Made by a program: the position numbers and the translations under genes | Origin: an uncultured Candidatus Saccharibacteria bacterium | GTDB lineage: Bacteria > Patescibacteriota > Minisyncoccia > Phycocordibacterales > UBA2163 | Direction: 5' to 3' | Length of the DNA stretch: 62,505 nt | Assembly (NCBI GenBank): GCA_964626705.1 | Contig: CAZVGL010000004.1 | Coordinates: 1 to 62,505, forward strand | Part shown: in pieces, positions 190-5,810 of the stretch | How positions within the stretch are numbered: the stretch's first letter is position 1 | Layout: each line of letters opens with the position of its first letter | The notes under the pieces: generated by a model | The model's database searches: none | Seen by the model: the letters and a program-made list of their open reading frames with translations, nothing else | What the model was told of the DNA's origin: nothing

Positions 190-1779
190 ATGAGTATCAA
201 ACCAAAATATTTTCTTTATGCTCGCAAGAGTACGGAGGATGATAATAAGCAGATTATGAGTATTGAAGCGCAGCTATTTGAATTGCGAGAGTTTGCTCGC
301 AAAGAAAATCTTGAAATTCTTGAGGAATTTCAAGAGTCGAAAAGCGCAAAGACACCCGGTCGCTTAGTGTTTGGTGAAATGATGGCAAAAGTTGAGGAAA
401 TGGGTAATGTTGGTATTTTAGCGTGGCATCCAGACCGTCTTGCGCGTAATAGTGTAGACGGCGGGAGAATAATCTATGCAGTGGATCAGAGAAATATTGT
501 GTCTTTACGCTTTCCGACATTTTGGTTTGAACCGACACCGCAGGGGTTATTTATGTTGCAAGTGGCGTTTGGTCAATCTAAGTATTATTCGGATAATCTC
601 GTGCAGAATATAAAGCGGGGGATGCGCCAAAAAGTTCGTCGGGGAGAGTGGCTTGGTTTTGCTCCTCCAGGGTATATTAATAATCCGCGCACTCGGAATA
701 TCGAACCTCATCCAACTCATTCGCGTATTATCAAGAGAGCTTTTGAGGAATATGCAAAAGGCAAGCACACACTTATTTCCTTGGCGAACTTTTTGGCGGA
801 ACATGGCATGAGCACAAGGGAGAACACGCCACTTGCCAAATGTTCCATCAAAATCATACTGACAAACAAGGCGTATTTAGGGTTTGTAAAATATCATGGA
901 GAATTGTTTGAAGGAACATTTGCGCCAATTATTACCCCGAAATTATTTGAAGCCGTGCAGAAAGTTCTCGCAACAAGAGGAAAACCGCGTAAATCTAAAG
1001 TGGGGCATAATTTTCCTTTCGTTGGACTTTTTTGTTGTGTAGAGTGTGGGAGTATGATTACTGCTCAATGGGCAACTAATCGTTTTGGCACAAAATATAG
1101 ATATTATCGTTGCACAAAAAAGAAAGGAAAATGCTCCCAAGGATATTTACGCGAGGATAGGCTTGTCGCTCAAATACAGGAACGGCTTCAAAAAATTTCT
1201 CTTTGCGATGAGAGTATTGATAAGATGCTCAAGCAAGTTGATAAATGGGAAAAAGAAAACAATCTCTCATCGCAAACTTGCGTTCAAAATCTTGCTGATA
1301 AAATCAAAGTGAGTGAAGATCGCTTAGAAAAGTTAGTCAGTTCATATTTAGATGGTGATATACCGAAAGAGATTTATATACAAAAGAAAGAGGGGAATAT
1401 GCGCTCCACACTCGCTTTGAAACAGAAACAGAAAGATTTGGAACGCAAGGGTAACAATTGGGTCGAACCCCTGCGGAATTGGATTTTAGATATGAAACTA
1501 GCCAATTTTTTATCCTCATCCACAGATTTTCACGAAATCAGCTCCTTCGTCAAAAAAGTTGGAACGAACCCTACGGTTCGTGACAAATCAGCCCACTTCG
1601 GCGCGTGCCCGCCGTCTGAATTATCCTTTGCTTACGCTACGAAATCGCCGTTTTCCCATCCGTTTTTGCCAAATGATTTAGCGAATAATTTTCACGATTT
1701 GGACGAAGTTAATTTTGGTGCTCTCAGTAGGAATCGAACCTACATCGCATCTTCCGCAAAGATGTATTCTATCCGTTGA
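190..1779 (+). CDS. Large serine recombinase (resolvase + recombinase + Zn-ribbon + coiled coil)
   Basis: YARKS catalytic motif, DRLARN, CxxC (CVEC), YYRC; C-terminal tail is encoded by the inverted repeat and antisense tRNA. Confidence 0.92.
   Translation: MSIKPKYFLYARKSTEDDNKQIMSIEAQLFELREFARKENLEILEEFQESKSAKTPGRLVFGEMMAKVEEMGNVGILAWHPDRLARNSVDGGRIIYAVDQRNIVSLRFPTFWFEPTPQGLFMLQVAFGQSKYYSDNLVQNIKRGMRQKVRRGEWLGFAPPGYINNPRTRNIEPHPTHSRIIKRAFEEYAKGKHTLISLANFLAEHGMSTRENTPLAKCSIKIILTNKAYLGFVKYHGELFEGTFAPIITPKLFEAVQKVLATRGKPRKSKVGHNFPFVGLFCCVECGSMITAQWATNRFGTKYRYYRCTKKKGKCSQGYLREDRLVAQIQERLQKISLCDESIDKMLKQVDKWEKENNLSSQTCVQNLADKIKVSEDRLEKLVSSYLDGDIPKEIYIQKKEGNMRSTLALKQKQKDLERKGNNWVEPLRNWILDMKLANFLSSSTDFHEISSFVKKVGTNPTVRDKSAHFGACPPSELSFAYATKSPFSHPFLPNDLANNFHDLDEVNFGALSRNRTYIASSAKMYSIR
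1583..1724 (-). repeat. 142-bp inverted repeat, right copy
   Basis: Reverse complement of 24..165; overlaps the last 9 nt of tRNA-Arg. Confidence 0.95.
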
Positions 1780-1790
1780 ACTATGAGAGC
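1716..1790 (-). tRNA. tRNA-Arg(GCG), CCA encoded
   Basis: Cloverleaf GCTCTCA...TGAGAGC-ACCA; anticodon arm CATCT-TTGCGGA-AGATG; T-loop TTCGATT. Confidence 0.93.
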
Positions 1791-1855: not shown

Positions 1856-2806
1856 ATGAGCAAGCATAAAGACATACTTTTTATTATCCCATTTATATTG
1901 ATCGTCATATTTGGCGGAGCATTAACATTTTTTTCTTTTAATGCTTCATACGAGAAGTTAAGAGCTGTAACTGTGGACGACATATCACGCAGTGTTGACG
2001 ACTTACCTCCACAGATTAATAGGGATTATTCAAAGCATGTGTCTGTCGACCTTGAAGCAGTTGCTGTGGTGGCAGAATTTGACGACGGTAAGACTTACGA
2101 GTATTGGACTTTTAATAAGCAGGTCCCAGGGCCTTTTATACGTGTGAGAGAGGGTGACACAGTGGAAATAACACTTACTCATTTGCGTAAGGTATTTATA
2201 AAACAAAACAGTTCTCATAGTCATGGGCCTAGTGATATAGAACGTATTCGCGCAATAAAGACTGATGGTGCTGAAGAGTTGGACCGTTTTGAATATTCTA
2301 TCGATTTACAGTCGGTACTTGGTCCTGCCGGAGCAGACTTGATGAAAGTTGGTCTTGGAGAAACAAAGTCATTTGAATTTAAAGCTACAAGCCCTGGTCT
2401 GTATATGTACACTGGTGGTGGCTCTAACGCATCTACCTACATCGCAAGGGGAATGTACGGATTAATACTGGTTGAGCCTATAAATGGACTCTCTCGGGCA
2501 GATAAAGAGTACTATGTTACAGAAGGTGAGATATATACAGACAAAGGTGTTGGAAAAATAGGCTTTCATAAAATAGATGAAAAAAAGCTTTCAGCGAAGA
2601 CTCCAAGCTATACTATATTTAACGGGCGTGTCGATGCATTAGAAGGGGACGGCGTACCTGTTGCTGATACGGGAGATGTTGTAAGGATATTTTTTGGAAA
2701 TAGTGGGCAAAATACTTCAAGTTTAAATATAATTGCTAATATAAACTTACAGTCAACATCTGTTCCTACTAGAGAGGCGGTTATGATCGAGATTGTGTCA
2801 CAGTAG
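1856..2806 (+). CDS. Membrane-anchored NirK-like cupredoxin lacking most copper ligands; second domain truncated (alternative GTG start 1835)
   Basis: YWTFN..VPGPFIRVREGD, PGLYMY and GMYGLILVEP match copper nitrite reductase; HNIDFH reads YSIDLQ and YHC reads YTG. Confidence 0.8.
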   Translation: MSKHKDILFIIPFILIVIFGGALTFFSFNASYEKLRAVTVDDISRSVDDLPPQINRDYSKHVSVDLEAVAVVAEFDDGKTYEYWTFNKQVPGPFIRVREGDTVEITLTHLRKVFIKQNSSHSHGPSDIERIRAIKTDGAEELDRFEYSIDLQSVLGPAGADLMKVGLGETKSFEFKATSPGLYMYTGGGSNASTYIARGMYGLILVEPINGLSRADKEYYVTEGEIYTDKGVGKIGFHKIDEKKLSAKTPSYTIFNGRVDALEGDGVPVADTGDVVRIFFGNSGQNTSSLNIIANINLQSTSVPTREAVMIEIVSQ

Positions 2807-2899: not shown

Positions 2900-3355
2900 A
2901 TGAATAATATTTCAAAATTAAGATCAATCGTACTTGCTGTCATCGTTATCGACCTGATCTTAGTATTCCCAGTGATGCTTTCTTACGAGAAAGTGGGTGT
3001 ATTCTTTAAGGTAAGTTCAAACGGAATACCAGAAGTATTTGTAACTCTGCTTGTAGAGATCATCCTTCTTGCCGTCACAGCTTTGGTGGCGTATTTGGTT
3101 GCACGTATATTTAGAGGAACTCCATTTGCTTCTGCTCTTTATTTTATAGCATGGGGAGTACTTCTTTACGGAGTTGGAGACTCGCATATCCTTATCTGGA
3201 TGTATACAGGAGTGGAGTCATTCCCTGCGTTTCTAGGGCCTGCCGGTTCGTCAATAGCTCACGCTCTTGGTGTAGGGTTAGGGTTTATCTTAGTGATCTT
3301 GGGTCTATACAAACTTGCAAAAGCTCGTAGTAAAATAGGAGGTGGGTCAATTTAA
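2900..3355 (+). CDS. Hypothetical ~4-TM membrane protein with two intramembrane His
   Basis: Hydrophobic segments; GDSH and IAHA; ATG at 2900 preferred over 2870. Confidence 0.75.
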   Translation: MNNISKLRSIVLAVIVIDLILVFPVMLSYEKVGVFFKVSSNGIPEVFVTLLVEIILLAVTALVAYLVARIFRGTPFASALYFIAWGVLLYGVGDSHILIWMYTGVESFPAFLGPAGSSIAHALGVGLGFILVILGLYKLAKARSKIGGGSI

Positions 3356-3453: not shown

Positions 3454-4695
3454 ATGAAAACTGTAAAAGAAAATATTTATTTGATTATAGCAGGAGTGTT
3501 CGCATTTGGGATTATAAATGCAGCATTGTTTTATTCATACACGGATAAGTTTTCGAGTATAGCATACGTAACATTTCTTATAGCACCCCTTCTAATTGCT
3601 GTGGTTGTCGTATTTACTAAGTTTTCATTTTTATTTACATCAAGGATCTCTGAACAAGAAGACGAGAAGAAACTGTTGCGTGAACGACAGAAAGAAATAG
3701 TAGAAAACATGATAGAAGGGCTTGTGGTGCACGACAAAGTAGGTAAAATACTTTCGGTTAATAGTATGGCAGAAAAGTTCTTAGGTATCCCTATATCGGA
3801 GCTTATTTATAAGAAGAATTCAGAGATAACAAAAAGATCGTCACTTCTCGATGCTTTGTTTAAGAAGTTTAATAAAGGAGATAGTCAGGAACATTCATTT
3901 AAAGATAAGCGTGGTAAAGAATATGTGTTTAAGATAATAAGTGTAGAGCTTAATAAAAAGCGTGGAGAGGTTCTAAAAATAATAAGAGATATTTCGAGAG
4001 AAAAACATTTGGATAAGATGAAGTCTGAGTATATTACTATTATGTCTCATAAGTTTTTGACACCACTTAACGGTATTAAGTGGACAGCACCTAGCTTGTT
4101 AGATAAGGCTATAAAAGAAGATGACAAAGAAAGGTTTGTAAAAAACATAATAGAAAGCACAGATAATCTAATAAATCTGACCTCACTGCTACTTAGGGTT
4201 ACAGAGATGGAGGAAGGGAACTTCGTGTATAAATTAGGACCAGTTGATATAAAGTCAATTGTTGAGAATGCTGTTAAAGATAGAGGTGACGATGTAAAGA
4301 AGAGGAAGATATCGATGATGTTTCATAAACCAGGAGTTTTGATGCCAAATGTTATTGCAGATAGGGATAGGGTAAAAGTTGTCGTCGATAATCTTATAGA
4401 CAATGCGATAAAGTATACCTTAGATGGTGGTAATATAGAGATCTCTTTAAAAGAAGAGGGTGGTAATGTTCGGTTTAGTGTTAAAGACGATGGTATCGGT
4501 ATATCAAAGAAGGCTCAGTCAGATATATTTTCAAAATTCATCAGGGACGATAGAGCTATAGCAATGCATACAGAAGGTTCTGGACTGGGGCTTTTCATAT
4601 CAAAAAATATAATAGAAGAACTTAAAGGTAAGATTGGCTTTACTAGTTCTGAGGAAGGAGGTTCAACGTTTTTCTTCACACTACCAAGAAAATAA
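3454..4695 (+). CDS. Sensor histidine kinase (2 TM, PAS, HisKA, HATPase)
   Basis: H-box SHKFLTP, N-box NLIDNAIKYT, G boxes DDGIGI and GSGLGL. Confidence 0.93.
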   Translation: MKTVKENIYLIIAGVFAFGIINAALFYSYTDKFSSIAYVTFLIAPLLIAVVVVFTKFSFLFTSRISEQEDEKKLLRERQKEIVENMIEGLVVHDKVGKILSVNSMAEKFLGIPISELIYKKNSEITKRSSLLDALFKKFNKGDSQEHSFKDKRGKEYVFKIISVELNKKRGEVLKIIRDISREKHLDKMKSEYITIMSHKFLTPLNGIKWTAPSLLDKAIKEDDKERFVKNIIESTDNLINLTSLLLRVTEMEEGNFVYKLGPVDIKSIVENAVKDRGDDVKKRKISMMFHKPGVLMPNVIADRDRVKVVVDNLIDNAIKYTLDGGNIEISLKEEGGNVRFSVKDDGIGISKKAQSDIFSKFIRDDRAIAMHTEGSGLGLFISKNIIEELKGKIGFTSSEEGGSTFFFTLPRK

Positions 4696-4696
4696 T

Positions 4697-4734
4697 AAAA
4701 AACTTCTCAGATGATGTTATCTGGGAAGTTTTTT
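4697..4734. terminator. Bidirectional intrinsic terminator between convergent kinase and response regulator
   Basis: Hairpin AAAAAACTTCTCAGAT..ATCTGGGAAGTTTTTT. Confidence 0.7.
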
Positions 4735-4738
4735 GTTT

Positions 4739-5122
4739 TTATTCAGAGATCATTTTGTCTTTTTCTGATAAAAGTATCTTTATCTTTTGTATAATCTCTT
4801 GAGGTGTGCTTTGGGCTTTTATTATGTAGTCTTTTACTCCAAAAGACTTAGCTGTGTCTGCACTCTCTTGGTCGTATAGGTTTGATAAAACAACTATGGG
4901 TGTCATATTGTTTTCAGCTCTAAGCTCTTTTAGGAGCTCAAGTCCGTGTAGTTTGGGTAAGATAAGGTCTAGGAGTACAATGTCAAAATTCCCCTTCCTT
5001 ATCTTTTCTAGACCCGCTTCTCCGTCAGTAGCTATTTCAATATTAAAACCTTCTTGTGTGCCTGCTACAGAAAGCATTTCAAGAAGAAAATTATCATCTT
5101 CTATTATAAGTATTTTAGACAT
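4739..5122 (-). CDS. Single-domain response regulator (receiver)
   Basis: ILIIEDD, DIVLLDLILP, VLSNL, YIIK. Confidence 0.93.
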   Translation of the reverse strand: MSKILIIEDDNFLLEMLSVAGTQEGFNIEIATDGEAGLEKIRKGNFDIVLLDLILPKLHGLELLKELRAENNMTPIVVLSNLYDQESADTAKSFGVKDYIIKAQSTPQEIIQKIKILLSEKDKMISE

Positions 5123-5181: not shown

Positions 5182-5646
5182 CTAAAATCCAAAGAACTCT
5201 ACTATTTTTTGAGCTAAAGATTCGCTGTCTTCCTCCTCATCAAGATAGTTTATAAGAAAATCATGCACATCTGAAGCTGATGTGTCACCTAGAGGTATTA
5301 CTGTGTGTGGAGCGAGTAGTTTTTTAGATTTTATTAAAAGTTTTGGTTCTATGTATTCATTGCTATCCTCTACCCAAAACGATTCGAGTGTTGTAAAAGG
5401 ATGTAGTTTTTTGTCTATTATTATTCCGCGGTTATTGATCTTAAAACTTATAACATTTGGTCTTTTGATAGAATTAATGCCAAGTGTAAATGCTCCTATT
5501 AAGATAACTATTGCAAATAACATATTGCTAAAAATAATAGAGGTTGCAGCAGCTGCTACAGCAATAATACCAAGCGCCCAAAACCAATCAGGGCTTTTGT
5601 GTACGTATTCATATTCAAGAGTTTCCCACTCAAACTGCTGTATCAT
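5182..5646 (-). CDS. Conserved CPR membrane protein (DUF5673-like)
   Basis: W..LEYEY..KSPDWFW N-terminus, 2 TM; start re-assigned to the ATG at 5646. Confidence 0.7.
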   Translation of the reverse strand: MIQQFEWETLEYEYVHKSPDWFWALGIIAVAAAATSIIFSNMLFAIVILIGAFTLGINSIKRPNVISFKINNRGIIIDKKLHPFTTLESFWVEDSNEYIEPKLLIKSKKLLAPHTVIPLGDTSASDVHDFLINYLDEEEDSESLAQKIVEFFGF

Positions 5647-5810
5647 ATGTTTATTATAAATGATTGAGTTAGTAACGCAATGATTTTTTTTGGAAGGTTG
5701 AGGATTGTTTTTGTTACGTAACATGCTACGTAACACCGCGACAATCTCAATAGGACTTGTTTATAGCAAGAATTTAGCTTAGTATAATGAAATAGTAATA
5801 ATTGAATATT

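Follow-up and report, generated by a model that had tools for sequence, protein, structure and literature searches.

Surveys of denitrification potential use nirK, the gene for the copper-containing nitrite reductase NirK (EC 1.7.2.1), as a standard marker. Class II copper nitrite reductases (CuNiRs), among them AniA of Neisseria gonorrhoeae (1kbv/5tb7), the core of the Hyphomicrobium denitrificans enzyme HdNiR (2dv6/6tfd) and the Bradyrhizobium enzyme (6the), have two cupredoxin domains that hold a type-1 copper ligated by His-Cys-His-Met, a type-2 copper ligated by three histidines, one of which comes from domain 2 of the neighbouring subunit, and the catalytic pair Asp98/His255. Cupredoxin folds without copper are also known, in plant early-nodulin-like phytocyanins and in subunit II of quinol oxidase (CyoA), where they make protein contacts at the membrane surface; these are single-domain proteins of an unrelated lineage and serve as an analogy alone. 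Here we describe a NirK-derived protein of 316 residues (P0001) that has lost nearly all of its copper ligands. It is encoded at positions 1856..2806 of the forward strand of a 62,505-nucleotide stretch of DNA, referred to below as the window (contig CAZVGL010000004.1 of assembly GCA_964626705.1, from an uncultured Candidatus Saccharibacteria bacterium).

Three published cases frame the comparison. The main paper on nirK in the candidate phyla radiation (CPR) reported that all residues required for function are conserved (PMC5581439). In Escherichia coli, SufI/FtsP is a metal-free cell-division protein with the fold of a multicopper oxidase (MCO) that acts as a scaffold (PMC2661564). In the LiaFSR system of Bacillus subtilis, an intramembrane-sensing kinase relies on an accessory membrane protein (PMC3543457).

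The window protein retains the homologous two-domain cupredoxin fold of NirK. Searches of the PDB with phmmer returned NirK structures as the top matches (2dv6, E 2.3e-48; AniA 1kbv, 3e-47; 6the, 5.5e-46), and the preliminary description, which had called the NirK scaffold recognisable from the letters of the sequence, was therefore right on this point. The matches cover residues 41-109 and 146-296, with an insert of about 37 residues between them. The NCBIfam equivalog TIGR02376 scores 160.3 bits, below its cut-off of 296.3, and Pfam finds Cu-oxidase_3 alone, at residues 73-108. An AlphaFold2 (AF2) model built from 117 homologues has a mean pLDDT of 87.2 and a pTM of 0.81, with the insert at about 52, and its top Foldseek matches are again NirK structures (2dv6, 6the and 5tb7, TMq 0.70-0.72). 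Domain 2 is still modelled confidently; full-length NirKs make up most of the alignment, however, so that this support for the fold is weak and the model does not judge the stability of domain 2. The reading frame opens with an ATG at which the homologues also begin, while some gene callers choose an alternative GTG at 1835. The protein is the sole NirK homologue in the genome, and for this reason a heteromer with an intact NirK paralogue was rejected.

Compared with the class II enzymes, the Asp98 equivalent and the axial methionine are kept, and the other ligands are replaced or missing. Ligands were assigned from HMMER alignments to AniA and HdNiR and from multiple alignments with CPR NirKs. 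In the motif YSIDLQ (2294..2311, forward strand, as are all features of this gene), which replaces H-x-x-D-x-H, the type-1 histidine has become Tyr147 and a type-2 histidine Gln152, with the catalytic aspartate retained as Asp150. The motif YHC has become YTG (2408..2416), with Thr186 in place of a type-2 histidine and Gly187 in place of the type-1 cysteine. In TYIARGM (2435..2455), formerly (T/M)HIANGM, the second type-1 histidine is Tyr195 and the type-1 methionine, Met200, is kept. The equivalent of the catalytic His255 is Asn291 (2726..2728). The third type-2 histidine, which belongs to the VDH motif, is missing, as the chain stops some 55-70 residues short and does not reach that motif. 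In total, three of the four type-1 ligands, all three type-2 histidines and the catalytic histidine are gone. The three motif readings, and the loss of the type-1 His, Cys and His and of two type-2 histidines with only the Met remaining, had all been given correctly in the preliminary description, and the losses extend beyond it to the third type-2 histidine and the catalytic histidine. Its remark that the second domain stops early also agrees with our alignments: relative to intact sister proteins of 370-387 residues, domain 2 has lost an internal segment of 16 residues in addition to the C-terminal 55-70 or so. The changes are not confined to ligands. The 111 intact NirKs share 129 columns with conservation of 90% or more; 58 of these are altered in the ligand-less form, and the new residues fixed in all six known ligand-less members include H144R, H147Y, S189G, Q223E, G230K and E248K. 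As judged from its sequence, the protein is predicted to bind no copper and would be unable to reduce nitrite.

Two further traits, an N-terminal transmembrane (TM) anchor and a His-containing insert (SSHSHG) ahead of the former copper site, had been pointed out as distinguishing marks. Both are present, and neither distinguishes the protein. The anchor spans residues 7-35 (1874..1960), as seen in the AF2 helix and in alignments; it has no Cys and so no lipobox, and it also occurs in ligand-intact CPR NirKs. AniA is likewise tethered to the surface. The insert (residues 110-146, 2183..2293, SSHSHG...IERIRAIK) is modelled with low confidence and is nonetheless constrained (dN/dS 0.15, see below). 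Intact CPR NirKs carry a conserved-His insert before HS(I/V)DLH too, which reads GHSH...RIRS in the sister clade and is longer and His-rich in others. The anchor and the insert are, by these alignments, ancestral in CPR NirKs and not novelties of this protein. More generally, in all CPR NirKs examined the LTH strand and HS(I/V)DLH are separated by an insert that is often rich in His (residues 109-146 in the window protein, nucleotides 2180-2293), and the associated conserved histidines of CPR NirKs, H109, H123 and H144, are missing from AniA-type enzymes. The CPR insert may be an extra metal site or an element for docking of an electron donor.

The same losses were found in five relatives (P0003-P0007) from NCBI, JGI, ENA and Logan assemblies when we searched 5.8 billion clusters and inspected the ligands of the top 120 homologue clusters. 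BLASTP puts their identity to the window protein at 66-72% and the multiple alignment at 68-74%; among themselves they are at most 85% identical. The second type-1 histidine (position 195) is kept in five of the six members and is Tyr in the window copy only; Met200 is kept in all six. Four of the five relatives are 311 residues long and share an identical internal deletion and stop position. The fifth, P0006, has 357 residues: its ligands are lost, but the segment of 16 residues is still in place, as is the greater part of the tail, and a gap of four residues falls exactly at the position of the VDH histidine. Of the remaining 114 clusters, 111 have the full HDHHCHMHH set and three are axial-Met variants or a fragment. 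A count of ligand-less versions had been suggested as a check. In a sample of 401 genomes of the order, 34 have a NirK homologue, and among 30 NirK loci checked the ligand-less form is found only in three genomes, that of the window itself (G000), G005 and G009. In the same sample the axial Met of the type-1 site is Leu or Gln in eight of 27 ligand-intact NirKs (loci L047, L048, L051, L056, L061, L062, L064 and L065).

A wider survey covered the 149 other representatives at 50% identity nearest to the query in a library of 1.84 billion proteins. It contained a few independent full-length forms with degenerate ligands (P0233, P0339 and P0268), with changes such as YQSG...QQ, His255 to Arg, and VDH to VDA or LDQ, as well as some single or double losses. 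Loss of the copper site has therefore happened more than once in the NirK family. The combination of near-complete ligand loss with truncation was found only in the present clade among the NirK homologues surveyed, and ligand-less NirK of this kind is confined to a small marine clade of CPR bacteria. No paper describing a copper-less NirK was found in the literature searched, and the NirK-derived pseudo-enzyme is a new form in that sense; the clade is a clear exception to the published statement on conserved residues in CPR NirKs cited above (PMC5581439).

The ligand-less proteins descend from the NirK of their own genus. Their closest intact relatives are P0008-P0011, encoded in genomes G002, G004 and G008 and named 'nitrite reductase, copper-containing [Parcubacteria group bacterium]'. 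These have the same locus, the same neighbours, the TM anchor and the HSH...RIRS insert, and are 47-52% identical to the window protein by local BLASTP (51-58% in the multiple and codon alignments); they differ in having all nine ligand and catalytic residues and a full domain 2. In the maximum-likelihood tree the six ligand-less proteins form a clade with 100/100 support that branches from within the ligand-intact NirKs of their genus, and the ligand-less gene sits at the orthologous locus. The stem that separates the clade from P0008-P0011 is 0.46 substitutions per site, compared with 0.03-0.24 for the other branches in the group; among terminal branches that of the window copy is the longest (0.24). 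The neighbouring kinase and membrane protein of these contigs give a tree whose deep splits are just 0.02-0.05. A long NirK stem set against such short splits shows that NirK passed through a burst of amino-acid change before it returned to normal constraint. The ligand-less genomes do not form one clade in the neighbour-gene tree, and their monophyly is not rejected by it (p-AU 0.185); a single ligand-loss event is compatible with that tree and is unproven at the level of the species tree. A tree in which the five truncated forms are a clade with P0006 as sister, as a single truncation would give, is not rejected either (p-AU 0.41). The simplest order of events is that the ligands were lost and the deletion and truncation came later, with P0006 as the intermediate.

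The preliminary description held that the intact open reading frame fits retention for a new role better than decay, and the evidence from homologues agrees: they are free of frameshifts and stops, and the neutral evolution that it named as a sign of a young pseudogene is not what they show. We compared codon alignments of five ligand-less genes (the window, L001, L003, L010 and L012) and two intact ones (L005 and L007), and give the ratio of nonsynonymous to synonymous change (dN/dS) as NG86 estimates, many of the pairs being saturated. Pairs within the ligand-less clade have dN/dS of 0.10-0.17 and the intact pair 0.12, which is the range of the neighbouring genes (kinase 0.06-0.19, membrane protein 0.04-0.11). 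The least saturated pair, L010/L012, gives dN 0.080, dS 0.725 and an omega of 0.11 (bootstrap 95% 0.07-0.17), and the upper bootstrap limits are at most 0.23 in all four pairs tested. By region, dN/dS is 0.044 for residues 59-109, 0.15 for the insert (110-146), 0.086 for the former copper sites (147-210) and 0.17 for domain 2. In a simulation of neutral change at 0.36 substitutions per site, genes acquired about nine stop codons each and none of 2000 trials left an open frame, which puts the probability of an open frame under neutrality at the observed divergence below 1/2000 per lineage. All six diverged lineages have open frames. Purifying selection was renewed after ligand loss in at least six diverged lineages.

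These results bear on the possibility that the gene is a slowly decaying relic, that is a young pseudogene, or an artefact of assembly or annotation. Three observations speak for such a view: the locus is wholly lost in four of ten species of the genus, the window copy combines the longest terminal branch with the extra loss H195Y, and no RNA run contains the words of the window copy. It was nevertheless rejected, and we regard it as highly improbable. Low dN/dS with tight bootstrap limits, equal to that of functional neighbours, open frames in six lineages with the same stop position, and the neutral simulation together rule out a pseudogene. The sequence recurs in many independent assemblies (NCBI, JGI, ENA and Logan), and 100% of the sampled words were found in at least seven seawater runs, which excludes an artefact. 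For the P0007 copy, two marine metatranscriptome runs contain about 20% of the words, which hints at expression. Judging from the sequences, the protein is very probably both retained and non-catalytic. A preserved MCO/cupredoxin fold, lost copper ligands and a gene under selection are also the marks of the SufI/FtsP type of pseudo-enzyme, the best documented bacterial precedent for an extracytoplasmic scaffold in place of an enzyme. FtsP itself is unlike the present protein in being a soluble, Tat-exported, untruncated protein of three CueO-like domains with no descent from NirK. Neither the three-domain architecture nor a Tat signal was found here, the top PDB matches were all NirK, and we saw no homology to FtsP closer than the superfamily level.

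What the retained protein does is suggested by the genes that follow it. The constant downstream neighbour, established by homologue searches and synteny, is a 151-residue membrane protein of four helices (4TM; 2900..3355, forward strand), whose counterparts on the contigs examined have 151-153 residues. Its family comprises 84 clusters of 145-153 residues, 58-91% identical, found only in CPR bacteria and all named 'hypothetical', with invariant polar residues D18, E53, D94, H96, E106 and H121. No Pfam domain matches it, and although AF2 models it confidently (pLDDT 92.4), Foldseek found no relative in the PDB (best E 0.8). Next is a PAS histidine kinase (3454..4695, forward strand), identified from Pfam, its sequence and the distribution of its orthologues. 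Two TM helices at approximately residues 8-27 and 36-55 precede its PAS, HisKA and HATPase domains. Because only about eight residues (SYTDKFSS) join these helices, the kinase has no extracytoplasmic sensor domain. A stand-alone receiver-domain response regulator of CheY type, recognised by Pfam and without an output domain, is convergent with the kinase (4739..5122, reverse strand). Between the two lies a strong hairpin (4694-4737) with a 20-bp stem and T and A tracts on both sides, which is likely to be a bidirectional terminator. No terminator-like site was found between the NirK-like and 4TM genes, and before the end of the kinase gene there is one weak site, inside the 4TM gene. The order of NirK or NirK-like gene, 4TM gene and PAS kinase on one strand and the response regulator on the other is the same in all contigs examined, intact and ligand-less alike. 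Among the ten species genomes of the genus, six have a NirK or NirK-like protein, the 4TM protein and an orthologous kinase (with intact NirK in G002, G004 and G008, and the ligand-less form in G000, G005 and G009) and four have none of them.

Operons of response regulator, 4TM protein and PAS kinase also occur without NirK across the CPR, with 4TM and kinase genes that overlap or nearly abut (L032:4601-6726, L034:5001-6027). The 4TM protein is therefore primarily the partner of the kinase, and its association with NirK is specific to this genus. The family looks like an undescribed accessory or sensor subunit of the kinase. In this the module recalls LiaFSR, which shares the two-TM kinase with a negligible outer loop and the co-occurring small membrane protein encoded next to it and thus genetically coupled to it; it differs from LiaFSR in that there is no sequence relation, the response regulator is receiver-only, and no cupredoxin-fold partner is known from LiaFSR-type systems. 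Kinases built in this way are known to take their input through accessory membrane proteins, and LiaFSR serves as the model of how the present module could receive its own. A NirK of Ryanbacteria has unrelated neighbours, and a 126-residue protein encoded downstream of it was rejected as a 4TM homologue, being unrelated.

The best explanation of these observations, to which we would give a little less than an even chance, is that the window protein is a copper-free, non-catalytic, membrane-anchored descendant of the NirK of its genus that acts by protein contacts. The membrane-anchored enzyme would first have lost its copper ligands and later been truncated, and the relic would persist as a folded ectodomain, anchored on the outer side of the membrane and working through contacts with other proteins. 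There it may join the 4TM protein and the PAS kinase encoded downstream in a signalling unit of the membrane and act as its extracytoplasmic subunit, in which case the kinase, having no ectodomain of its own, would signal to the CheY-like receiver. By analogy with known systems we put this assignment to the 4TM/kinase/receiver unit forward tentatively, as the likeliest of the mechanisms considered and yet one that could well be wrong; the specific partner is much less certain than retention and the loss of catalysis. Several points weigh against it. The link to the kinase module predates the loss of ligands, as the intact NirKs have the same neighbours. The module is found elsewhere in the CPR without NirK, and NirK without the module, and since each occurs alone NirK is no obligatory part of it. 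Joint absence from four genomes of the genus could reflect a single deletion. The linkage of the NirK-like, 4TM and kinase genes is one of gene order, co-transcription being putative. The absence of copper is itself deduced from sequence alone, most pairs in the dN/dS comparison are close to saturation (dS 0.7-1.5), and deleting two terminal strands of the cupredoxin sandwich might destabilise domain 2, a matter that AF2 cannot judge.

A different partner is suggested by a second gene. The genome of the window encodes, on another contig, a membrane-anchored beta-propeller protein of 536 residues that resembles NirN and NirF (G000 C1:3175-4785, locus L036, reverse strand; identified by Pfam and PDB searches), and further copies are found at L001:2817-4430 and L003:1-1487. 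It matches the full Pfam model PF02239 (Cytochrom_D1) at 3.6e-62, and the closest solved chains are 6rtd (1.6e-51), NirF 6tv2 (1.5e-40) and NirS (approximately 1e-13). It has no CXXCH motif and no cytochrome c domain, its N-terminal domain has no Pfam match even at E 1, and it contains a Met-rich linker, MDMVMNMDMGGM. Within the genus the propeller occurs in exactly the three ligand-less genomes (with two copies in G005); neither the three intact-NirK genomes nor the four without NirK have it. The contig of the 357-residue intermediate carries it as well. If NirK catalysis had become redundant or been displaced once the lineage gained this cytochrome-d1-type propeller, which belongs to the other nitrite-reductase family, the relic could be its partner or adaptor and have survived by docking or scaffolding within a new extracytoplasmic complex. 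The arrangement in G005 (L001/L002), where the two genes share a strand and the propeller gene stops 33 bp before the NirK-like gene, would fit such a complex, as would the N-terminal TM anchors of both proteins, the strong Cytochrom_D1 match over the full model, and the position of the G000 propeller by rpsT and ruvA, genes that in relatives border the NirK locus. Striking as the coincidence with ligand loss is, it amounts to one evolutionary event, and the two genes are on different contigs in G000 and G009. In the 401-genome sample of the order the propeller is present in seven genomes; in the four outside the genus it is accompanied by no NirK (three genomes) or by an intact NirK at another locus (one genome). 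The ALAD gene was not found in the genome, which therefore cannot make tetrapyrroles, and with no CXXCH motif in the propeller either, a haem-d1 enzyme is doubtful, as is the simple idea that NirS has replaced NirK. On balance we consider a propeller partner unlikely.

Several observations concern the same protein and its surroundings. The intact sister NirKs P0009 and P0011 (L007:6001-7164) end in Met-rich tails, NMNMNMDMDMDMPQ, similar both to MxM tracts that bind Cu(I) and to the propeller linker of the ligand-less genomes. Neither a tRNA nor an Rfam family was found in the non-coding stretch beside the propeller gene on C1. The window opens with 32 bases (1-32) that are identical to G000:C1:3137-3168 (L036), about 6 bp past the stop codon of the propeller gene, and end in ...AAGAGCACCA, like the 3' end of a tRNA. 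They could be a junction in the assembly graph (a k-1 overlap) or a duplicated attachment site of a serine recombinase, and their presence hints that the NirK-like and propeller loci are linked.

The residues that survive in the former copper region raise one more alternative, that the protein has been repurposed as a binder of a metal or small ligand, such as a Cu(I) buffer or chaperone or an anion-binding protein, and is no inert scaffold, through a new site formed from Met200, His195, the HSH motif of the insert and Arg144/Tyr147. Met200 is invariant and five of the six proteins have His195; the histidines H109, H121 and H123 are conserved, all six share the newly fixed R144 and Y147, and residues 147-210 are strongly constrained, as the regional dN/dS of 0.086 given above attests. 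The MxM tracts of the sister NirK tails and the propeller linker would suit a role with copper. We think such a binder distinctly improbable, as His195 has been lost in the window copy, the remaining residues form no recognisable known metal-site geometry, and confidence in the modelled insert is low.

Upstream of the NirK-like gene the window differs from its relatives. A tRNA-Arg(GCG) gene lies 65 bp upstream (1716..1790, reverse strand), and the 3' end of a gene for a large serine recombinase of a mobile element (190..1779, forward strand) overlaps it. In relatives, pilin-like genes precede NirK; here the tRNA-Arg gene and the recombinase element stand in their place. A membrane protein of 155-184 residues (...DWFWALGII...EEEDSESLAQKIVEFFGF) is encoded in the window at 5182-5736 on the reverse strand, downstream of the response regulator and by a tRNA-Ser gene, and in relatives it lies upstream of NirK beside the pilin-like gene. 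With this gene shifted and the pilin-like genes replaced, the locus has been rearranged in this genome.

The preliminary description warned that automated pipelines could miscount such genes as denitrification capacity, and this already happens: IMG/JGI calls P0004 and P0006 'nitrite reductase (NO-forming)'. The ligand-less clade is not to be counted as denitrification capacity. The effect on nirK counts is small, with ligand-less forms in three of the 34 NirK-bearing genomes of the sampled order. Several other ligand-degenerate representatives exist in global data, and checks of the ligands should therefore be routine. For the family, the wider value lies in the range of states that one genus shows at one locus, namely intact, ligand-less and full-length, ligand-less and truncated, and completely lost, which makes it a compact natural system for the transition from metalloenzyme to pseudo-enzyme.

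For the organism, the most far-reaching possibility, which we regard as a long shot, is that an enzyme was converted to a receptor in stages and that the relic, the propeller, the 4TM protein, the PAS kinase and the CheY-like receiver make up an undescribed extracytoplasmic sensing apparatus. If true, such an apparatus would sense nitrite, NO, redox state or a host-derived cue, and would have its output at the protein level in an episymbiotic CPR bacterium, for example on the type IV pilus machinery, genes for which lie to either side of the locus. The coincidence of the propeller with ligand loss and the CPR-wide module of response regulator, 4TM protein and kinase offer entry points into the signalling of these ultra-small symbionts.

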